Positions 13,186-50,879 of a stretch of DNA of 64,000 nt are shown here, one piece after another. The notes beneath the pieces are model-generated. The model searched no databases, was not told the origin of the DNA, and saw only the letters and a list, made by a program, of their open reading frames with translations. Position 1 is the stretch's first letter. Each line of letters begins with the position of its first letter. This DNA is from an uncultured Bacilli bacterium (GTDB taxonomy: Bacteria > Bacillota_I > Bacilli_A > RF39 > UBA660): assembly GCA_944358415.1 (NCBI GenBank), contig CALVRA010000004.1, positions 3,311 to 67,310 on the forward strand. Reading direction: 5' to 3'. The position numbers were made by a program, and so were the translations under genes.

Positions 13186-13208
13186 AAAAAGAAGGGATTT
13201 TTCCCTCC
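13186..13208 (-). terminator. Putative rho-independent terminator after the 734-aa gene
   Basis: Minus strand reads GGAGGGA-aaaa-TCCCTTC followed by TTTTT, immediately after the TAG stop. Confidence 0.5.
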
Positions 13209-15412
13209 TAATTTAATAGTTTTTTTATTTCATCTAAGGCACACTGGGCGTCTTCACATTTTAAACCTGTTTTTGAATTATCATATTCTAAGTCAATGGC
13301 TCTTAATTTTATTTGAACTTGATAAGTACTACTTAGTGTATTGGTACCATCAGTCACGGTAGCAACTACAGAGCCATGATAATAAAATATGACAGTAGCT
13401 GTTTTTTCTTTTACTTCGGTGGCTGGTTCGTTATCTTTTTGATAGTAACAAGTGATTGAGCTTCCACAGCCATCTGGATATGTGATAGTTACAGTTCTTG
13501 GATATATGCCTTCATCTTTAAAGGTTGGAACAGTGAAGACTGAAGTTGTGACGTTTTTATTACTTGTTTGTTGAACATTTTTTTCATTGGTTACTCTAAC
13601 CATGATATTATAGGTTGTTCCTTGATTTAAATTATTAAAGGTATAAGTGTTTTTAGTTCCACCATTTACCCAATTTTTACCACCATCTAAAGAGTATTCA
13701 TATTTAGTTATGTCGAAGTTAGATGAAGCATTTGCGACAACGGTTATACTATGAGAGGTGGCAGATGTAGATATATTTAAGGTTATGCTATCATTGATTG
13801 GTTCAATGTTGACATCATAACTATTACTCAACATACTTTCACCATCAGAAACAGTAGCAAGGATGGTTCCACTTTCAGTAAATTGAACTTGGGCTTCAGT
13901 ACTTTTAACAGTGACTGGTGCTTGACCATTCATTTGATAGGTACATGACAAAGTATCTTTACATTCTTCTTGGAAATGAATAGTTATGGTTTTTGGATTA
14001 ATACCTTCTTCAGTAAAGGTAGGTTCAATTAATTCTATTTTAACGCTTTCCATATCAATTAAGTATGGATCTTCTTTAGTTCCTGTTCCACCTGTAATAA
14101 CTGTTTGTTCTGAAAGATATAATGATGGAGCGACAAAAGATGTATTTATTGAGGCATTAGTATAATTTATACTTCCAGGTTTTTGGTCTTTACTAATTAT
14201 AAAGACTTGATTATTATTATCTAAAGTTGGTGTAATAGTCCACATATTACTATTTTCAGGAATGATGCTATAAATCCAGTTAGTGTTTATACATGAAGAA
14301 GTATTATTATTATTTAAACTTAAAGATCCACACTGGTTATTATTTGAATTAGCTCTTATAAATTCTGAGACAGTGATTAGACCAATTTTACCATTCCACT
14401 GAGATGTTTTTTCATCGGTCATTTGATTTTTGATGTCACCGTTGTTGGCATTAATGGCTCCAACATACCAAGCATGGTTAATAATATTAGCTTTATTAGT
14501 AGTGATTTTATTTAAATATGTATTATTCAAGTAAGTGTTTAGTGAGGCATCTTTTAAGACGGTTCCTGAAATATAGCCATTTATATAGTTATTATTAATG
14601 CCCCAGGCATTACATCCGTTATTTCCACTGGCACAGTAAGTTCCTCCTGCACCATTACTAGCTTGGTCTCTTTGACCGGCGGTATCGAAAGCATTAGCGC
14701 TTTCTGCCGATGATCTAATGATTTTGATTGTACCATCTTTTTCTAATGATATGATACGCCATAATTCATCGTTAAATCTAATATAGTTATTAGGGTTGGC
14801 ACCTTTAAAGATACATTTACCGTCTTCTGTATCATCGAAATACATGCCAGAACCTGAGGTTACAACATTATCTGGGGTACATTCTAATGATGATGATGCA
14901 CTATTTTGATTATCTGAGTCAAAAGCAATGGTTGAAAATGTTCCATTATTAAATTCGGCAAAAAGTCTACCTTTGTTTTGAATTGGTTTTGCATCTATTT
15001 TTGAAATAAATTCACGAAGTTTTTGGCCAATATTATTATCTTCATTATTGTTAACATAATACTGGATAGCTTTAACATCAGAGTTTGTATATATGACTGT
15101 TTTAGCCCCCATTTGTTTCATAATTGTTTGACAAAAATTATCGGTTAAATTGATATTACATTCATTATCCTTATAGACTAGCACATAAGGTTTTTCGACT
15201 GTTAGATACTCCGATAAATCATAACGATTAGTGGTTAGATAATTAGCTACAGAGGATAAATCATAAATTGATTCAACGTTATTATGACTATAGCTATTTT
15301 TATAGTTATTTGTTAAATTACTGAACTGAATGAATAGTATGATTAATATTGTTAAGACAAAGGTTGAAACTATTAGGGCTTCAGCTAGTAAAAATCCTTT
15401 TTCGTTTTTCAT
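13208..15412 (-). CDS. Giant prepilin-type (type IV pilin-like N-terminus) surface protein with a non-variable copy of the DGR-target scaffold
   Basis: N-terminal 'KGFLLAEALIVSTFVL' prepilin cleavage/methylation-like motif. Residues ~186-452 ('GANPNNYIRFNDELWRIISLEKDGTIKII...MWTITP...FVAPSLYLSEQTVITGGTGTKEDPYLI') are paralogous to the 310-aa target. Two Ig/FN3-like modules are shared with the 802-aa protein. The C-terminus carries 'EYDNSKTGLKCEDAQCALDEI'. Confidence 0.8.
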   Translation of the reverse strand: MKNEKGFLLAEALIVSTFVLTILIILFIQFSNLTNNYKNSYSHNNVESIYDLSSVANYLTTNRYDLSEYLTVEKPYVLVYKDNECNINLTDNFCQTIMKQMGAKTVIYTNSDVKAIQYYVNNNEDNNIGQKLREFISKIDAKPIQNKGRLFAEFNNGTFSTIAFDSDNQNSASSSLECTPDNVVTSGSGMYFDDTEDGKCIFKGANPNNYIRFNDELWRIISLEKDGTIKIIRSSAESANAFDTAGQRDQASNGAGGTYCASGNNGCNAWGINNNYINGYISGTVLKDASLNTYLNNTYLNKITTNKANIINHAWYVGAINANNGDIKNQMTDEKTSQWNGKIGLITVSEFIRANSNNNQCGSLSLNNNNTSSCINTNWIYSIIPENSNMWTITPTLDNNNQVFIISKDQKPGSINYTNASINTSFVAPSLYLSEQTVITGGTGTKEDPYLIDMESVKIELIEPTFTEEGINPKTITIHFQEECKDTLSCTYQMNGQAPVTVKSTEAQVQFTESGTILATVSDGESMLSNSYDVNIEPINDSITLNISTSATSHSITVVANASSNFDITKYEYSLDGGKNWVNGGTKNTYTFNNLNQGTTYNIMVRVTNEKNVQQTSNKNVTTSVFTVPTFKDEGIYPRTVTITYPDGCGSSITCYYQKDNEPATEVKEKTATVIFYYHGSVVATVTDGTNTLSSTYQVQIKLRAIDLEYDNSKTGLKCEDAQCALDEIKKLLN

Positions 15413-15493
15413 GTTTATCCTCCTTTTATTTTTTATTTACAATTTACCAAATATAAGTCTAATATTTATAGATATTTTTAAGTTGTTTCTAAT

Positions 15494-17542
15494 TTAATAT
15501 GGATAACATAGGCTACCTACTAAATCATATCCTGATGGACAAGTATAATAAGGTTCACTATATGAAGCAGAAATAGTAGTTGTTTTTTGACATTTCATAC
15601 TACTTCCTGAACCTATTTCAGTATAACCTGATGGACAATAATAGTAACTGCTATGATATGTTGCACTTGTAGAATTGCGGCAATAAGCTGTAGGATGATA
15701 TGTGTATGAACCTGGGCTTGCACAATGGTCACCATTTTCAGAATATCTGGAATCATCACATTCATCATAGGACGATTGATTATCAGTATGTGATAAGTTT
15801 CCATTATTACAAATTACAGTTCCAGTAACTCTTGTCCAGTTAGTATAACAGGTTGTTCCAGATTTATTAGGATAACCTGATGGACATGAGTAATATGATG
15901 AGCTATAGGATGCATTTGTTGTGGTTGTTTTTTGACATTTCATACTACTTCCTGAACCTATTTCAGTATAACCTGATGTGCAGTAATAGTAGCCTTCATG
16001 ATATGTGGCATTGATTACCATGGTTACAGTATAGCTACTACTAGTTTTATTGATACCATCTGAAACATTAGCAACTAGTTCCCCATCGTCTGTAAAATTA
16101 ACATCGACAGTAGTTGTAGTTACGTTTATAGTATTGCCATTATTTTTTTGATATGAGCATGTGAGTGTGGTTCCACACCCTTCTGGGAAGGTAATTGTAA
16201 CGGTTTTGTTTTTAGCTCCTGTTTCTTTATAAGTTGGAGCAGCTAAGGTTTTAGTTATAGCATTTTTATTGGCAGTGACAATTTTACCACTTTCAGAGGT
16301 GACTCTTACTTGAACATTATAAGTAGTTGTTTGAGTTAAAGAGGTAAATCTATAAGTATTTGATGTTCCTCCATTAATCCACGTTTTTCCATCTAATGAA
16401 TATTCATATAAGGTTACATTATTACTTATATTATAGTTTTCTTCTGAATCACCGACTTTAGTAGCTGCATTATACCAACCATCCGGAATATATCCTGTGT
16501 TTGCAATGATACGTGGAAGGGTTATTTGACAACTAGTATTTCCAGCTAATATGGTACAACTTTTTGACAAGCTATTTATTGACGATACGTTTGCACCTTT
16601 GACAAAAGTTGCCGTGGCAGTTTTATTTTGTAAAGTTATACTACTTCCTCCACCGCTTGAGCCATTTTGCGATGATATATTTCCTGCTTTGTCTTTGACT
16701 CATATATAATATGTTCCTTGCCCTTTGGGAATAATAATACTTCCTTCTTCTTTAGCTTTTATATCAACTTGATTCCATCCTTCAGCATTTTCGTCTGGAG
16801 TTTTGTTTTCTTCACTGATATAATAAGCTGCGATTCCACTGACGTTGTCAATGGCTTTAATATGTATTTTTGAATTTGGATCAATGGTTATACTATTTAT
16901 TTTGGGAATTTCATTATCAATATTAATAATGTCTATATTGTTAGTGATTATACTGGCGCCAGTTACTCTAGCTTCTAAGGTTGATATTTTTTTAAATACA
17001 GGCAATTCAAAATTACCTTCATGGGCTGTTTGCCATGAACCATTATCTATTTTATATTGGTAAGTATATCCACTACCTAATTTTGGATATTTTATTATAA
17101 CACTTCTTTCGTGAACCCATTTATTATTATTTGGATTGATAACAAAGTCTATTTGATGAACTGTTGATGTCGCACTACATTTATCATTATCAACTATTTC
17201 ATAATTAATATTTTTATCATTATCGATGGTGACATAGATTGTTTTATTAGTGATATCTTCACCGGTTTCAACATCAATGACTGGACTTACAAGTGTGCCA
17301 TTATCTACTAAGTCTTGAACTGGGATACAATATGATCCTGGTTTATTGGTACCAATTGTTTCTTCAATATATATTTTTATAGCATCTGAAATTAATCCTT
17401 CGCTTACTTTATTAGCTTCATTGCCGTTTTGAGCTATTTTATTAATGATTGTTGGCATAATCAATAATAAAAGCAAAGATATTATAACTATTACCCCTAA
17501 AATTTCAGTTAGTGTAAATCCTTTTTTATTCATTTTTATCAC
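15494..17542 (-). pseudogene. Pilin-like adhesin paralog interrupted by one in-frame TGA
   Basis: ORFs 16700-17542 and 15494-16570 are in the same frame. The only stop between them is TGA (16700-16702) in 'GTYYI*VKDKAGN', where the tandem paralog reads 'GTYYVWVKDRAGN' with TGG. Translation between the ORFs continues the homology (VKDKAGNISS...SKSCTILAGNTSCQITLP). Confidence 0.7.
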
Positions 17543-17708
17543 CTATATTTATTATAGTTTTTTTATGAGCTAAAAATTGTCAAATAATTTTTACTATTAT
17601 CTATTTTCTATAATAATTATAAACTATTCAAGGAGGTAATGCAAGTACATTATGAAATAAGGTTTTATTTAAATGAAAGAGAAAAAAGTAAATATTATTA
17701 ATATCTAC

Positions 17709-20117
17709 TTAATTTGGGAAACACAAATTACCAGAAAGCGTATAACCTGATGGGCAGGTGTAATAATCCTCATAATATGTTGGAGTTATTGATGTGGTTT
17801 TTCGACAAGTCATGGAACTGCCACTACCAATTTGGGTGGAGCCACTTGGACAACTATAGCTATATGAAGTGTTAGGATTAGTATACGTTTTGGTTTCTTT
17901 TGTACATTTTGTTGAGCTACCTGAGCCTGTTTTTTTATATCCTGATGGACAGGTATAACTGGTGGAACTAGTTGGTGTTTCAGTCCAAGCTTTATGGCAA
18001 AGATTAGCCGCACTATAACTACTATATTGATTACTGCAGGCACCGGTGTTTTTATAACATTCTGCTCCTGAACCTGAGTATCCTTGTGAAGTTATGGCTA
18101 GGACATTACATTCACAGCTATAGCCTTGGTTAATATAGTTATTACGATAATCACGCCATTTTTGTTTTGACCCTTCTTGGTCATTACATTTAATAGTATA
18201 ATATAGGCTTGGTGAGTGACTACACTGGCATACATCATTATGATCAAGATGACAACCACCAGTACATTTTTTGGTAATTGATTCAGTGGCATTGATGGTT
18301 TCTGTTTTTGTTTTATAGCATTGTGTGGAACTGCCTGAACCTGTTTTTGTATATCCTGGTGGACATGAGTATGTTGTTACTCTATTAGCACTTGTTGTGG
18401 TTGTTTTAGTACATCTTGTGTTACTGCCAGATCCTGATGTTGTGTATCCACTTGGGCAGACATATCTTTCTGGATGATAGGTTGCATATATATACATGGT
18501 AACGTTATAGGTACTACTGACTTGGTTTGTCCCATCACTTACTTTAGCAACTAAGGTACCATCATCTGTGTACTGAACATCGGCTGTTTTAGTGTTTACA
18601 GTGACTTCTGATGAGTTATTTTTTTGATATGTACAAGTATATATATCACCACAGCCATCTGGATAAGTTATGGTTACTGTTTTAGTGGTAGTTCCACTTT
18701 CTTTAAATGTTGGTAAAGGTATGGTGGCCGTTTTTGTGTCTTTATAAGCTATTTTTTGCTGGGTGGTTTGACTTGTGACACGAACGGCAATATTATAGGT
18801 TGTTCCTTGGGTTAATTTACTAAAGGTATAAGTATTATTATTATTTCCATTTTCCCAAGTTTTTCCACCATCTTTAGAATATTCATATTTGACAATATCA
18901 CTTAAAGCAGTAGCTGAAGCAACAACAGTTATTTTATTGGTTGTAGATGTTGTTGAGAGATTAATAGTAATTACGTCTTCTATGACTTTTGAATTTAAAG
19001 TAATATTATTACTAATAGAATATTTAGCATTTGGTTTTCCAACGTTTACATTTCCATTATACCAGCCATCGGTTATATATTTAGGATTTGCTGTAATATT
19101 TGGCAAGGTTATTTGACAACTAGTATTTCCAGCTAATATGGTACAGCTTTTGGAAGTGCTATCTATTGAAGCAACATTTGCTCCTTTTGTAAAGGATGCT
19201 GTAACTATTTTATTTGTTAGGGTGATACTATTATTATTATTTGATGAGATATTTCCAGCACGATCTTTAACCCATACATAGTAAGTTCCCTCTCCTTTAG
19301 GAACTGTAAATGAAGCTTCGATGTTAGCATCAATATCGGTATTTATCCATCCTTCGTCATTAATATCTGGAGTTTTACTATTTTCACTTATATAATATCC
19401 GACTATGCCACTTACTTGATCAATAGCTTTAATGTTTATGTTTGAATTTGGAGCGATAGTTAGGCTATTGATTGTAGGATTTTCATTATCAATATTAATG
19501 ATATCGGCTGTATTATTTATATTTTGTTTGCCTCTTACTCTAGCATACAAGGTTGATATTTTTTTAAATGGATTAGTTATTTCAAAGTTACCTTCATGGG
19601 CTGTTTGCCATGTACCATCATCTATTTTATATTCGTATGTGTTTTGGTCACCTAGTTTAGGATATGCAATAATGACTTTTCTTTCATGGACCCACTTATT
19701 ACCACTTGGATTAATGATAAAATCAATTTTATAAATGGTGGAATCGGCTTTACATTCGTCTTTTTCAACTATTTTATGGGTAATTTGTCCTTTTCCATTT
19801 ATTGTCACATATACTGATTTATTTGATATGTCTTCGCCAGTGGTTATGTCGATGACAGGACTGACTAATTTACCATCATCTATTAGTTCTTGAATCTGAA
19901 CACAGTATGTACCTGGTTTAGTGATATCGGTATTTTCTTCTAGATAATTATCAGTAGAGGCAAAAATAAGATTATCACCTGTGTTACCAGCTTTATCACT
20001 ATTATTAGCAATTTGATTAAGAATGGATGGCATGATTAATAATAATAGCAAAGATATTATAACTATTACTCCTAAAATTTCTGCTAACGTAAAACCTTTT
20101 TTATTCATTTTTATCAC
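17709..20117 (-). CDS. Giant prepilin-type adhesin-like protein (802 aa) with a Cys-rich repeat C-terminus
   Basis: N-terminal 'KKGFTLAEILGVIVIISLLLLLI' type IV pilin-like signal. Ig/FN3-like modules ('KYEYSKDGGKTWENG...GTTYNIAVRVT'). At least six 'CPSGY..(T/S)GSGS..C.K' repeats. Confidence 0.85.
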   Translation of the reverse strand: MIKMNKKGFTLAEILGVIVIISLLLLLIMPSILNQIANNSDKAGNTGDNLIFASTDNYLEENTDITKPGTYCVQIQELIDDGKLVSPVIDITTGEDISNKSVYVTINGKGQITHKIVEKDECKADSTIYKIDFIINPSGNKWVHERKVIIAYPKLGDQNTYEYKIDDGTWQTAHEGNFEITNPFKKISTLYARVRGKQNINNTADIINIDNENPTINSLTIAPNSNINIKAIDQVSGIVGYYISENSKTPDINDEGWINTDIDANIEASFTVPKGEGTYYVWVKDRAGNISSNNNNSITLTNKIVTASFTKGANVASIDSTSKSCTILAGNTSCQITLPNITANPKYITDGWYNGNVNVGKPNAKYSISNNITLNSKVIEDVITINLSTTSTTNKITVVASATALSDIVKYEYSKDGGKTWENGNNNNTYTFSKLTQGTTYNIAVRVTSQTTQQKIAYKDTKTATIPLPTFKESGTTTKTVTITYPDGCGDIYTCTYQKNNSSEVTVNTKTADVQYTDDGTLVAKVSDGTNQVSSTYNVTMYIYATYHPERYVCPSGYTTSGSGSNTRCTKTTTTSANRVTTYSCPPGYTKTGSGSSTQCYKTKTETINATESITKKCTGGCHLDHNDVCQCSHSPSLYYTIKCNDQEGSKQKWRDYRNNYINQGYSCECNVLAITSQGYSGSGAECYKNTGACSNQYSSYSAANLCHKAWTETPTSSTSYTCPSGYKKTGSGSSTKCTKETKTYTNPNTSYSYSCPSGSTQIGSGSSMTCRKTTSITPTYYEDYYTCPSGYTLSGNLCFPN

Positions 20118-20167
20118 CTACTATTTATATTATAACTTATTTTGGTTAAAAATTTAAGATATGAGTA

Positions 20168-27334: not shown

Positions 27335-27565
27335 CTTTTAATTAAAAAAGTATTATGAATATAAGGGCGTTTTGAACGCGGTACCACCTTATTTTATAAT
27401 ACTTTTATTATCTTTAATTGCTTTAACGGGCATGTCCGTCTTATACTTTTCATATAAGAAGCTCCTAAGTAAGTTCATAATTATGGTTAAAAAGTTTTCA
27501 CCAACCACTTTTTCTCTAAGTAACCTAATAATTATTACTGCTCTTATTCCTTGCTTTTAACTTTA
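27335..27565 (-). promoter_or_regulatory. T-box riboswitch leader, Leu specifier
   Basis: Minus strand carries the T-box core AAGGTGGTACCGCG (plus 27377-27390). This core is enclosed by a long terminator helix (AAGTATTATAAAATAAGG / CCTTATATTCATAATACTT) followed by a T-run. The candidate specifier region ...GAACUUACUUAGG... contains Leu codons CUU and UUA. Confidence 0.85.
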
Positions 27566-28343: not shown

Positions 28344-28373
28344 TAGAAAAACTCGGTATTTTTTCCGAGTTTA
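28344..28373 (-). terminator. Rho-independent terminator immediately 3' of the template repeat
   Basis: Minus strand: ACTCGG-aaaaaata-CCGAGT followed by TTTTT, starting right after the TAA of the TR pseudo-ORF. Confidence 0.65.
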
Positions 28374-28382
28374 TTTGATGAG

Positions 28383-28547
28383 GTATGGATTTGACTGGGT
28401 TCCAGTTCCTCCTGTAATTTGGACATCAGAGGAAAGAGTTATGGCAGGGCGGACCGCGTTGTTCGTATTGTTCGCGTTGTTGTTGTTGACGTTGCCGTTG
28501 TTGTTCACATTGAACACGTTGTTAGAGTTACTAGAATTAGGCGACAA
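28383..28547 (-). repeat. DGR template repeat (TR)
   Basis: 165-nt copy of the 3' end of the adjacent gene. The core is dominated by AAC/AAT codons (pseudo-ORF '...NSSNSNNVFNVNNNGNVNNNNANNTNNAVRPAITL...'). Differences from the VR fall almost exclusively at TR adenines. Confidence 0.88.
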
Positions 28548-28681
28548 GCAAAACAGTCCAAACATATTAGTATTGCCCCATATATTGTGCCAAAAATATT
28601 TTTTCGGCCATGGCGAGGCATTCGCCCCGCTACCAAACTCCTATCGGAGTTTGCGAAATCATTCTATCCACTGTTTTATTC

Positions 28682-29614
28682 TTAACTCAAAGTGTATGGA
28701 TTTGACTGGGTTCCATCTCCACCAGTGATTTGGACATCAGAGGAAAGAGTTATGGCAGGGCGGACCGCATAGAACGCATAGCTCGCGTCGTAGTCGTTGA
28801 CGTAGCCGTTGTTGTTCACAACGAACACGTTGCGAGAGCTACCAGAAGCAGGCGACAATGTCCACCAATGACTATTTGAATCAAACATCCAATCACTATT
28901 CTTACATGTACGATAATTACTATTATATGTACTTAATGTTTTACAGCTTGTATTTGAACATGCTCTTATATATTCACTTACTGTTGGTAAGGCTACTTTT
29001 ACTTTAGATGTTGTTCCTTTTTCATCATTTATTTGATCTTGCATATCATTATTATTCCATGTTACTGCACCTGCATAATATGTAGCTTCTACTATTTGAC
29101 TTTTGGCAACACTTGTTAGACTATAATAATATGTACCATTTAAATATATATTAAGGGTTGCTGGTTGATTCCACTTGTTTGAATTTGATGTGTCCCAAGC
29201 TAAATTATCAGATGTATTTATCTCTTCATCCCTCATTATCTTTATTGTTCCATCTGAATTTATAGATATGATTCTCCAGCCGGCTTTCTCATTATTAAAC
29301 GTTACATAATTATTGGGATTGGCTCCTTTATAAGTGTATTTTCCATCTTCATATTCATCTTTATATAATCCATCTCCTGATGTTACTATATCTACATTAT
29401 CTAATATTGTATCTCCGGTTGTTGGTGGGAAACAGACATTATAAAGTTCATCTATGGCTCCTTGGACGTTATTTGAATTAAGGCCACTTGAAGTATTTGA
29501 ATATGATACTTCATTTGATGGGAAAGTGACTGCTGCACACACCACTACTCCACTTACTATAATTCCGGCAATTATAAATCCTATTAGATTGGTTTTTATA
29601 TATTCTTTTTTCAT
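28682..29614 (-). CDS. DGR target protein (310 aa), membrane-anchored with C-terminal variable region
   Basis: N-terminal TM anchor plus 'FPSNEVSYSNTSSGLNSNNVQGAIDELYNVC'. Scaffold 'GANPNNYVTFNNEKAGWRIISINSDGTIKIM'. The C-terminus 'WWTLSPASGSSRNVFVVNNNGYVNDYDASYAFYAVRPAITL...' corresponds to the VR that matches the TR. Confidence 0.88.
   Translation of the reverse strand: MKKEYIKTNLIGFIIAGIIVSGVVVCAAVTFPSNEVSYSNTSSGLNSNNVQGAIDELYNVCFPPTTGDTILDNVDIVTSGDGLYKDEYEDGKYTYKGANPNNYVTFNNEKAGWRIISINSDGTIKIMRDEEINTSDNLAWDTSNSNKWNQPATLNIYLNGTYYYSLTSVAKSQIVEATYYAGAVTWNNNDMQDQINDEKGTTSKVKVALPTVSEYIRACSNTSCKTLSTYNSNYRTCKNSDWMFDSNSHWWTLSPASGSSRNVFVVNNNGYVNDYDASYAFYAVRPAITLSSDVQITGGDGTQSNPYTLS
28694..28858 (-). 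repeat. DGR variable repeat (VR) cognate to the TR at 28383-28547
   Basis: Collinear 165-nt match to the TR at a 311-nt offset. The variable core is 28769-28849. About 18 of 19 core mismatches are at TR adenines. Confidence 0.88.
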
Positions 29615-29742: not shown

Positions 29743-30018
29743 ATGAAATTGTGTGAAAGTTTGGCAATTAACTTAAAATATTTTTGTAAGAAATATGGAT
29801 TTTCTCAAGAAAAGTTTGCAGAAATTTTAGGAACGACATTATCTTATTTAAATCAAATTGAAAATGGTAAAATTGATGTTAAGTGTTCGACAATTGACAA
29901 GTTTACTAATAATATTAACAATTATGACAAAAAAGCCAAGCTTAAGGCTTGGGATTTAGTTATTTTTGACAAGTCACATATTACTCATTTTTCAAGAATT
30001 GATGAGCGTAATAAATAA
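29743..30018 (+). CDS. XRE-family HTH transcriptional regulator
   Basis: 'FSQEKFAEILGTTLSYLNQIENGK' Cro/C1 HTH. Transcribed divergently from the DGR target. Confidence 0.75.
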   Translation: MKLCESLAINLKYFCKKYGFSQEKFAEILGTTLSYLNQIENGKIDVKCSTIDKFTNNINNYDKKAKLKAWDLVIFDKSHITHFSRIDERNK

Positions 30019-35904: not shown

Positions 35905-36024
35905 TTAATTTATATCATCAAAAAGTAATTTGATGTCTATTTCTAAAGCATCAGCTATTCTTCCTAAGACTGTTATTGTAAATCCTCTTTGCATTTTTTT
36001 ACTTTCTATTTTAGCAATTTGTCG
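35905..36024 (-). pseudogene. 3' fragment of an XRE-family HTH gene (5' end deleted)
   Basis: The minus frame reads 'RQIAKIESKKMQRGFTITVLGRIADALEIDIKLLFDDIN*', the recognition-helix-to-C-terminus part of a Cro/C1 HTH. There is no start codon, and the fragment abuts the VR relic. Confidence 0.55.
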
Positions 36025-36198
36025 CCTTGTCCTGGTTCTTCTTACTTTGTGTTCGATGTGAATTTGGGTGGCGGCGTCAGCAACTACGGTGGCGTCAGCT
36101 TCAATACGGACGCAGTCCGGCCGCTCGTCTATCTCTCTTCATCGGTTCAAATCACAGGAGGAAATGGCAGTCAATCAAATCCATATGTTTTGGGATAA
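36019..36198 (+). pseudogene. Relic VR / C-terminal fragment of a DGR-target paralog
   Basis: GC-rich island encoding 'LSPCPGSSYFVFDVNLGGGVSNYGGVSFNTDAVRPLVYLSSSVQITGGNGSQSNPYVLG*'. Homology to the TR/VR starts at the same TTGTCGCCT boundary. There is no upstream gene body. Many differences lie at non-adenine positions, so the fragment is decayed. Confidence 0.7.
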
Positions 36199-36220
36199 GT
36201 ATTAAAAAATAGTGAAGGTT

Positions 36221-37228
36221 TTAATTACCAACACTATTTTTCTCTAATAGTTTTAACTCTTTTATAGATAATCCTGTTGCTTTAGAAATGTCATAGATAT
36301 TCATTTTCATATTAAATAAATTTTTAGCTGTTTCTCTTATACCCTCTCTTATCCCCTCTTTTATGCCTTCTTTTTTGCCTTCTTTTATGCCTTCTTTTTT
36401 GCCTTCTTTTATACCTTCTTTTTTTCCCACTTTTCTTCCTTCTATTCGTCCATGTTTGAAGCCATATTCTTTAATATTTTCTAAAACTAACGCATCTAAT
36501 TTTTCTTTCTCCCATGCATGAAGTACAAAGTTACTTTTACTCATATTTATCACATCCTTCATAAATTTTTGTAACTGTTTTTCATTTAATATTTGTTTTA
36601 AAAGTATATACATTTCAGTAAAGGTTTTCGCAGTTAAAGCTGCATTCCATATTACTTCTTTACTTCTTATACCATAAGTATAATATAACTTTTTGTAAGT
36701 TTCAAGACTTCTTATAATTGTTTTTTGTTTTATTGGGTATATTTTTTTATTTTCAATATCATAAAGTATTACTTTTTTACTAATATCTATATCTGATTTA
36801 TGGGCATTTATATTTATTTGATATAAAGAATAATGTTTTAATTTTTTGATATTTTCACCAGTTTCTAAAAGCATACTAGCTAATTTATTTAAATATAAAT
36901 TATTACGTTCCCTAACTATTTCAAATGGCATTTTATTTAATTCTATATCAATGAATATTTGATTATTTATTGATAAATACAAATCGACAATTTTATGATA
37001 TTCATCTTTATTTTCTTTATAAAGTTCGTTATTTAAAAAAGTTATTTTTGATTCTTTTTTGATATTTAAATTTAATAATGAATTTAAATAGTCTTTTAAA
37101 AGATTTTTATTTCTTTGAAAAACACTTTTGAAAACAATATCATATGTCAAATTAATTAGAGTTACTTTTTTATCCAACTCTTTTAAATAGTTTATATTTA
37201 TTTTTTCAATAGTTTGAATAACCATCAC
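36221..37228 (-). CDS. PD-(D/E)XK nuclease family 'transposase-like' protein (PDDEXK_2 / Rpn-like), second copy
   Basis: 'YDIVFKSVFQ', 'VDLYLSINNQIFIDIELNK' and a C-terminal (K/R)EGI repeat tail followed by 'NIYDISKATGLSIKELKLLE'. Paralog of 7660-8559. The two copies share a ~50-nt upstream block. Confidence 0.7.
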   Translation of the reverse strand: MMVIQTIEKININYLKELDKKVTLINLTYDIVFKSVFQRNKNLLKDYLNSLLNLNIKKESKITFLNNELYKENKDEYHKIVDLYLSINNQIFIDIELNKMPFEIVRERNNLYLNKLASMLLETGENIKKLKHYSLYQININAHKSDIDISKKVILYDIENKKIYPIKQKTIIRSLETYKKLYYTYGIRSKEVIWNAALTAKTFTEMYILLKQILNEKQLQKFMKDVINMSKSNFVLHAWEKEKLDALVLENIKEYGFKHGRIEGRKVGKKEGIKEGKKEGIKEGKKEGIKEGIREGIRETAKNLFNMKMNIYDISKATGLSIKELKLLEKNSVGN

Positions 37229-50644: not shown

Positions 50645-50872
50645 CCTTTAGAAAAAAACTTATAAATTTAAGGACGTTTTGAACGTGGTACCACCTTAAT
50701 TTATAAGTTTTACTTACCTTGTTTAAGTTTAACGCACTTTTTACGTACTTCCCTACTATTATTTCAGGAAGTCGGCTTGTTCAAGCTACTTTCAATATTA
50801 TCTATTATTAGTTTACATCAACCACTAACTTTCTTTAAATAGATAAATATTTACTCCTCTTGGTCTTGGCTT
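50645..50872 (-). promoter_or_regulatory. T-box riboswitch leader, probable Val specifier
   Basis: The minus strand T-box core AAGGTGGTACCACG lies inside a long terminator helix (CTTATAAATTAAGG / CCTTAAATTTATAAG) followed by TTTTTTT. The upstream segment ...GGGAAGUACGUAAAAAG... contains GUA (Val). Confidence 0.8.
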
Positions 50873-50879
50873 TTACACA

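Follow-up and report, generated by a model that had tools for sequence, protein, structure and literature searches.

A 64,000-nt stretch of the genome of an uncultured Bacilli bacterium (GenBank assembly GCA_944358415.1, contig CALVRA010000004.1, positions 3,311 to 67,310; hereafter the window) carries two similar 165-nt repeats, one forming the 3′ coding end of a gene for a DUF6273 protein and the other lying just downstream of that gene. The differences between them fall almost exclusively on adenines of the downstream copy, and we are in very little doubt that the pair, a template repeat (TR) and a variable repeat (VR), was made by retrohoming of a diversity-generating retroelement (DGR). 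Together with a DGR-type reverse transcriptase (RT) and an Avd protein encoded in the same window, and with the VR at the C-terminal end of the target protein, the pair makes this a DGR by the features that define such elements. The repeat pair itself is the standard DGR signature; the more unusual aspects of the system come from our interpretation of its layout and from related loci (designated L001 and so on below). Coordinates are in window numbering, and those of the main features are collected in Table 1.

The preliminary description of this DNA had proposed two collinear 165-nt repeats 146 nt apart on the minus strand, and a repeat search of the window recovered them at the same coordinates (85% identity, start-to-start distance 311) as the only 165-nt direct-repeat family that it returned; by self-BLAST the pair ranks strongest among the short repeats of the window. 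Compared base by base on the minus strand, TR and VR differ at 24 positions, 21 of them at a TR adenine, two at a C and one at a T, and within the core (TR 28538-28458, VR 28849-28769) 18 of 19 mismatches are at a TR adenine, as had been counted by hand. The mismatches are clearly not spread evenly over the four TR bases, and the core adenine changes from TR to VR include all three substitution types (nine A>G, seven A>T and two A>C). Since there are only 36 adenines among the first 102 TR bases, the bias is not compositional (Fisher p = 3e-9 for those 102 nt and p = 6e-9 for the whole 165 nt). The lone non-adenine mismatch of the core, the C>T at 28458/28769 that had already been listed as an exception, lies in an AAC codon that reads AAT in the TRs of relatives; because those TRs have a T there, we regard it as a TR polymorphism and not as a counter-example. 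On the 3′ side of the core the copies are identical over 41 nt (about 40 had been estimated), beginning with GCGGTCCGCCCTGCC; five mixed mismatches follow at TR 28416-28405 (T>C, A>T, A>T, A>G and C>A), and the last 22 nt are again identical, with homology breaking off sharply at both ends. The codon and protein strings first written out for the two repeats proved correct on rechecking.

Ordinary duplication of the 3′ end of the gene, followed by divergence or by gene conversion among paralogues, could also leave a repeat pair, and the target family is indeed multi-copy, with several paralogues in each genome and other intragenic repeats in the window. The mismatch spectrum effectively refutes such a non-retroelement origin, to which we give almost no credence: neither the degree of adenine specificity nor the presence of all three substitution types fits it. 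An independent VR argues in the same direction, that of locus L015, from another metagenome and with a target protein 78% identical to the window's: compared with the window TR, it has 18 core differences, all at adenines and 0 elsewhere, and this independently supports the view that the lineage has a working template in this TR sequence. An adenine-agnostic scan, which took in every offset on either strand of the 64 kb and scored adenine and non-adenine mismatches separately, returned two further matches, at ~15.5 kb and ~17/19.6 kb, each of which lies within ordinary repeats by self-BLAST and was rejected as a DGR pair. Tabulated as a control, the 15.5-kb repeat has mismatches at all four bases and no adenine bias (p of at least 0.07). 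Three large open reading frames (ORFs) without a Pfam match are found between the RT and the TR at 13208-20117 on the minus strand (734, 358 and 802 aa); they have internal and mutual repeats (for example, 71% identity between 16406-17578 and 18993-20154, and repeats of the CPSGY type in 15527-16010) and form one paralogous family.

The ORF and Pfam results place the VR, the mutated copy, at the coding 3′ end of a gene whose product matches PF19789 (DUF6273) with E = 1.3e-10; the A-rich copy, non-coding in its context, lies downstream. More than 1700 homologues of the target at 65-80% identity are found in gut metagenomes and in metagenome-assembled genomes (MAGs) labelled ‘uncultured Bacilli bacterium’. 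When 32 homologues are aligned, the protein is strongly conserved apart from residues 256-282, and within that segment the variation falls on positions templated by adenine-containing TR codons: of the 19 such codons, 17 have an entropy of 2.35-3.5 bits and two single-A codons one of ~1.45 bits, versus at most 0.81 bits for the interleaved codons that lack adenine. The adenine-containing codons 3′ of GCGGTCCGCCC are mostly conserved, and because hypervariability stops there, we place the end of the mutagenic tract at this GC-rich motif. The contig of L001 (7343 nt), which encodes the same target protein, stops 43 nt past the target stop codon, inside the spacer between the repeats; this end is an assembly break at the VR/TR repeat, and short-read assemblies often split such modules.

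An AlphaFold2 model of the target, built from a 70-sequence alignment of 50%-cluster representatives, has a predicted local distance difference test score (pLDDT) of 93 and a helix at residues 3-30 (an earlier model built from 32 close homologues had a pLDDT of 37). The significant fold matches of this model are phage DUF6273 proteins, some of them annotated as receptor-binding or tail proteins, and the immunoglobulin A (IgA) peptidase of Thomasclavelia ramosa; its matches to C-type-lectin domains are weak, and DUF6273 has been described as a C-lectin-like DGR target (PMC10743442). The best match among solved structures is the T. ramosa enzyme itself (PDB 9qa6, Foldseek E = 5e-8), from which the diversified domain is predicted to share its fold with part of a gut IgA-cleaving enzyme; a sequence-profile search of the PDB with the target returned the IgA protease as its sole match. 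A tblastn search against phages returned no phage homologue of the target.

The patch of five mixed mismatches near TR 28404-28418 was confirmed, but the role suggested for it, as the discriminator between the initiation of mutagenic homing (IMH) site and its IMH* counterpart, is not established. Most VRs have AAATC at a site where the TRs of the window, L022 and L033 have AAATT, and this is the sole recurrent TR-versus-VR difference in the patch; throughout the patch the diversified VR of L015 matches the TR form, and the residue encoded there varies by ordinary divergence among homologues. Judged from these comparisons, a discriminator role for the 15-nt patch is possible but unproven.

The DGR machinery expected to accompany the repeats is present in the window, though 25 kb from the pair. 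The RT gene at 3369-2266 is the single YxDD match in a six-frame scan of the 64 kb; its product is 30-35% identical to phage DGR-type RTs, with matches that include phage nd12 (34%) and Bordetella phage records, and it scores far under the cut-offs that NCBIfam sets for group II intron and DRT reverse transcriptases. For the Avd protein the top match is NF033474 (DivGenRetAVD), under that model’s cut-off. The ORF of 213 aa that separates Avd from the RT keeps its position in relatives (213-218 aa) and has no match in Pfam, NCBIfam or PHROGs; we regard it as a candidate for a DGR accessory gene specific to the lineage. No RT adjoins the TR/VR pair, and the window lacks the compact cassette in which a TR adjoins the RT and an accessory gene; the setting is chromosomal.

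Related loci show what the surroundings of this RT look like elsewhere. In L012/L013, with an RT 67% identical to the window’s, the cassette is canonical (a large target with a VR, then TR, Avd, a 217-aa ORF and RT), and VRs from two samples, compared with one and the same TR, show 19 and 14 changes, every one of them at an adenine. In L024, L025, L029, L026 and L027, with an RT 100% identical to the window’s, the 2.6 kb between target and Avd is a tandem array of 10-12 TR-like cassettes with a period of about 158-161 nt (L024:3819-5741, L025:3600-5510, L029:929-2200). Each cassette consists of CGCCGTCG...GGCTACGGCGTCCGCCC plus a ~45-nt linker; the cassettes differ from one another at scaffold positions, and some are A-rich (30-35 A) and others VR-like (~19-20 A). 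Each strain’s VR matches one cassette, with adenine/non-adenine differences of 10/0 in L024, 9/0 in L025 and 9/0 in L029, and the VRs of different strains match different cassettes. Because an identical RT adjoins VRs that differ from cassettes solely at adenines, the RT must have been active recently in the species, and the sister-strain array may be a multi-template DGR. Silent-cassette gene conversion of the vls or pilS type was considered for these arrays and rejected: the differences between VR and best cassette (the three pairs above and the 13/0 of the window, described below) are confined to adenines, which points to error-prone reverse transcription rather than to plain gene conversion. 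In one sister strain an IS605 OrfB/TnpB-type gene lies between the RT and sodA (L024:8211-9359); it is absent from the window.

At the proximal locus of the window the cassette array has been deleted along with the C-terminal tail of the protein encoded upstream. A 773-aa target paralogue upstream of Avd ends ...GYGVRPISYYS, and the 3′ end of its gene is a VR/TR hybrid, whose VR tract differs from an internal unit of the L024 array (cassette 4759) at 13 adenines and 0 other bases. The non-coding domain at this locus shares 75-99% identity with the region that flanks the TR in L024, L010, L012 and L008, the flanks of the locus are 97-99% identical to L024, and the DNA of the RT locus is 99.4-99.7% identical to that of strains with demonstrably used templates. 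The same hybrid junction is found in three assemblies (the window, L023 and L028). An assembly artefact is unlikely, given this agreement and the mere ~17 nt shared by the VR and the last cassette; from the common junction and the near-identical flanks we conclude that the deletion of the array is real and recent. It leaves the RT without neighbouring templates, and no intact template other than the distal TR remains in the window. A 68-aa ORF (6914-7120, minus strand) immediately upstream of the 773-aa paralogue, conserved in sister strains, encodes nothing beyond the N-terminal transmembrane segment and the FPSN..SG..NVQDAIEELY module that are common to the target family.

The distal TR appears to belong to a unit with signals of its own. 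TR ORFs homologous to the window’s occur in other genomes, and an intact TR unit of the distal type is also found in L033. Some 60 nt of the spacer between VR and TR (28589-28653, with hairpins H1 and H2) are 100% identical in the window, L002, L004, L005, L006, L022 and L033, although the targets of these 6-7 spacer-bearing loci are just ~72% identical as proteins and the adjoining coding DNA ~75%. The TR units of L005, L022 and L033, like the window’s, finish with a hairpin and T-run terminator, and the sequences of these terminators are unrelated; since the spacer is near-invariant while the terminators all differ, it is under strong sequence-specific constraint. It is found solely where a TR or TR remnant follows and is missing after the diversified VRs of L015 and L016, and for this reason we infer that it is part of the TR unit (a leader, a regulatory site or an RT-Avd binding site) rather than a general target-side cruciform. 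On account of the same two VRs we also reject the idea that the spacer hairpins serve every VR as a recognition element. The sigma-70-like promoter candidate would place the start of transcription ~10 nt upstream of the TR, and its -10 region is conserved across all TR-bearing loci. By itself the TR RNA has no significant structure (z = -1.6); in a fold of the long RNA, the 5′ arm of H2 (GCGGGGC) can alternatively pair with GCCCUGC at the GC-rich 3′ boundary of the TR. A 23-mer from the spacer was found in none of the JGI metagenome contigs or IMG/VR contigs, and a genome scan with it matched two MAGs. A third, diverged copy of the repeat occurs on the opposite strand; its homology begins exactly at the TR/VR 5′ boundary TTGTCGCCT with no gene body upstream, and it is a relic either of a TR-position copy or of a truncated target.

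These components make up a real DGR with a split layout, and we consider it fairly probable that it is served in trans by the RT-Avd pair of the window; that the RT at 2266-3369 was responsible for the repeat pair and is still active, we would put at even or slightly better. RNA from the TR (28547-28383), begun at the promoter-like site upstream or arriving as a 3′ extension of the target mRNA and ended at the terminator after the TR, would be reverse-transcribed by the DGR RT with Avd, the template adenines being copied unfaithfully. The complementary DNA would then replace the target tract 28849-28769, with the GC-rich GCGGTCCGCCC... segment as a fixed 3′ boundary, and 19 codons of an extracellular DUF6273 domain, anchored in the membrane, would thereby be randomised. 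Most likely the enzyme would be the RT-Avd pair together with the 213-aa ORF (2266-4323), acting over 25 kb. The use of the distal TR by this RT, the boundaries of the transcript and the role of the hairpin-bearing spacer are all points that we infer. In favour of the trans arrangement, the octamer GTCCGCCC occurs just three times in the 64 kb (0.09 expected), once at the 3′ edge of the proximal hybrid and once each at those of the distal TR and VR (in most relatives the distal modules have GTCAGGCC in its place). The RT is intact, is the only one in the window and in sister strains naturally deals with many templates. Moreover, avd, TR and brt have been shown experimentally to work in trans, and DGRs act on remote targets (PMC5758913).

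Several observations weigh against such an arrangement, or against its present activity. The distance from TR to RT is 25,013 nt, with genes for topoisomerase A and B subunits, leuS and other chromosomal genes between them, and TRs are usually directly adjacent to their RT, although this is typical and not obligatory (PMC5758913). The domain at 4640-4393 is present in a single copy in the window, with no counterpart near the distal TR by nhmmer, and thus the cis elements normally seen by the RT may be missing there. For the exact target gene a single VR allele is recorded (a cluster of one sequence on four contigs); the hypervariability described above is that of the family. The TR-position copies of L002/L007, L004 and L006 are truncated by insertions; those of L005 (1051-1215) and L022 (615-797) are full length, look diversified at adenine-templated sites like VRs and no longer match their own VRs, which may point to self-homing of the TR or to conversion from VR to TR, and hence to IMH/IMH* discrimination that is leaky. 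Such modules decay readily. The window also covers 64 kb of what is a longer contig in a larger genome, and a second RT may be encoded elsewhere.

The missing 3′ domain, the single VR allele, the truncated or eroded copies in these relatives (L002/L007, L004, L005, L006 and L022) and the degenerate relic at 36018-36222 would all suit a fossil pair, written by a past DGR whose module is now inactive, either because the RT takes proximal-type RNA only or because the system is decaying after the loss of its array. We think this unlikely, if deserving of serious consideration: the 102-nt core holds a single non-adenine TR/VR difference, itself a known TR polymorphism, which makes the last homing recent on the scale of neutral drift; the TR is pristine, every one of its AAC/AAT codons being intact; and the RT, Avd and 213-aa ORF are intact, the RT being 100% identical to that of strains with used templates. 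Alternatively, an active module might be served by another RT, encoded outside the window and of the kind seen in L019, where a canonical target-TR-Avd-RT cassette of another gut organism combines a very similar TR (PNSANANNVFNVNRDGNVNNNNANNTNAVRP) with an RT 42% identical to the window’s. The existence of that cassette also counts against the trans reading; a further point in favour of another RT is that the natural templates of the window RT belong to a different TR family (CGCCGTCG...GGCTACGGCGTCCGCCC). A second RT nevertheless strikes us as improbable, given that no RT lies beside any small-target module examined, that the GTCCGCCC boundary motif is common to the distal TR and VR and the proximal repeats of the window RT, and that the genomes are small (MAG chromosomes with homologues are ~1.4-1.5 Mb).

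The preferred interpretation, a split DGR served in trans by the RT-Avd pair of the window, can be extended, tentatively and with more doubt than belief, to a distributed system. In it, one RT-Avd would serve two kinds of template, an RT-side array of ~11 alternative cassettes, different ones of which have demonstrably served as template for one target gene in different strains, and free-standing ‘satellite’ TR units beside remote DUF6273 targets. Each satellite, placed immediately downstream of its target, would comprise a promoter-like site, the TR, a terminator and the invariant ~60-nt three-hairpin leader. The window strain would then have lost the array and kept the satellite alone, and could serve as a natural test case for use in trans of a TR that lacks the RT-proximal RNA domain.

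Like the prototype DGR of Bordetella phage BPP-1 (mtd-avd-TR-brt), the window system shows adenine-specific transfer from TR to a VR at the target’s C-terminal end, a mutagenised tract bounded by GC-rich, unmutagenised 3′ homology, and an Avd together with an RT bearing the (I/L/V)GxxxSQ motif; trans action of the BPP-1 components is also possible (PMC5758913). In both systems short hairpins with 4-nt loops lie downstream of the VR: Guo et al. (PMC3240598) described a GC-rich hairpin/cruciform, closed by a 4-nt GRNA loop, a short distance past the VR, which H1 and H2 resemble, and the H1 loop GATA fits GRNA (relatives have TATA). The two systems differ in that H1 and H2 sit 40 and 63 nt past the end of the repeat (the reported range is 4-34 bp) and are tied to TR-bearing modules rather than to all VRs. 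They differ also in that the window TR is not between avd and the RT but 25 kb away beside the target, with its own promoter-like site and terminator, in that the element is chromosomal and not phage-borne, and in that a clear IMH/IMH* difference is not demonstrated.

Scattered chromosomal targets for one RT, paralogous surface proteins and a non-phage setting are also features of the Treponema denticola and ‘Lineage 4’ DGRs of Wu et al. 2018 (PMC5758913, PMC4891356), but in those the TR stays by the RT and only the VRs are remote, whereas here the remote locus has its own TR and the RT-proximal TR is gone. The DGRs of phages nd4 and nd12 (‘tentaclin’) and of Faecalibacterium prophages likewise have a DUF6273 target that is predicted to be C-type-lectin-like (PMC10743442, PMC11792537), and the nd12 RT is among the best phage matches to the window RT (34% identity); unlike those compact phage cassettes for receptor-binding proteins, the window target belongs to a cellular, membrane-anchored family. 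More than one template per RT is known from DGRs that have at least two TRs (53 cases, PMC11661182), which the sister arrays of 10-12 cassettes plus a distal TR resemble, except that the ~11-cassette array lies in the related loci L024, L025 and L029 and not in the window. In a limited literature search we found no report of a tandem array of ~11 different cassettes, or of alternate cassette use between strains, and in the literature examined no report of a remote TR beside its target with its own transcription signals where the RT-proximal template has also been lost. VRs at remote sites are well known; the remote TR is what differs here.

The chromosomal neighbours of the TR/VR pair encode a Bax1-I family membrane protein, LeuS (leuS is preceded by a T-box leader), a helix-turn-helix (HTH) protein, two glycosidases and pyruvate kinase. 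Rfam models identified two T-box leaders in the window (27360-27560 and 50667-50876, minus strand) and nothing DGR-related; the former lies upstream of leuS and separates it from the surroundings of the DGR module.

Table 1. Positions and properties of the DGR-related features of the window
Feature	Coordinates	Strand	Description
DGR-type RT	2266..3369	-	367 aa; IGNETSQ and YMDD motifs; RVT_1 61.8 bits (over the threshold); phrog_1423 E = 4e-80
213-aa ORF	3366..4007	-	Between Avd and RT; N-terminal transmembrane segment
Avd	3979..4323	-	114 aa; PF22296 bAvd 45.2 bits (cut-off 40); phrog_3206 ‘Avd protein of DGR’ E = 3e-17
Conserved non-coding domain	4393..4640	-	Comes after the RT-proximal TR in relatives; may form the 3′ part of the DGR RNA
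VR/TR hybrid	4614..4730	-	VR-type tract that ends the gene for the 773-aa target paralogue (6923-4602), joined at GGCTACGGCGTCCGCCC to the last TR cassette’s 3′ flank and to the conserved non-coding domain
Intrinsic terminator	28349..28372	-	Straight after the TR; AAACTCGG-loop-CCGAGTTT, then a T run; from terminator scan
TR	28383..28547	-	A-rich (56 A/165 nt), AAC/AAT codons; within a 64-codon ORF (28565-28371)
VR-TR spacer	28548..28693	-	146 nt; three hairpins, then GGGGCAATACTAATATGTTTGG; DNA fold z = -3.6
Sigma-70-like promoter candidate	28564..28593	-	TTGGCA-18-TAATAT; 9/12 consensus matches; a consensus match only
Hairpin H3	28608-28589	-	A5/T5 stem
Hairpin H2	28630-28613	-	7-bp GC-rich stem, loop GAAT
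Hairpin H1	28653-28634	-	8-bp stem, loop GATA
Target gene	28682..29614	-	310 aa; N-terminal transmembrane helix; conserved FPSN..SGL..NVQGAIDELY motif; DUF6273 domain with VR at C-terminus
VR	28694..28858	-	Mutagenised tract 28849-28769; the rest is unmutagenised 3′ homology starting GCGGTCCGCCC
HTH_3 (XRE-type) gene	29743..30018	+	Divergent; recurrent neighbour of target paralogues
Third repeat copy	36018..36222	+	Diverged, 5′-truncated; 69-codon ORF and terminator-like hairpin; nhmmer E = 9e-19

Surveys of DGRs search for repeats around the RT, with TRs usually directly adjacent to it (PMC8144416, PMC5758913), and a TR that lies 25 kb off, beside its target, could fail to be connected with its RT, which could then be scored as template-less. 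If the distal TR is used in trans, RT-Avd would recognise a template RNA that lacks the conserved RT-side domain, which would constrain models of recognition and be useful for DGR engineering. One retroelement would then also maintain a dispersed family of hypervariable surface proteins in a gut bacterium with a small genome, and the cassette array of the sister strains suggests a second layer of variation, in which the choice of template is added to adenine mutagenesis.

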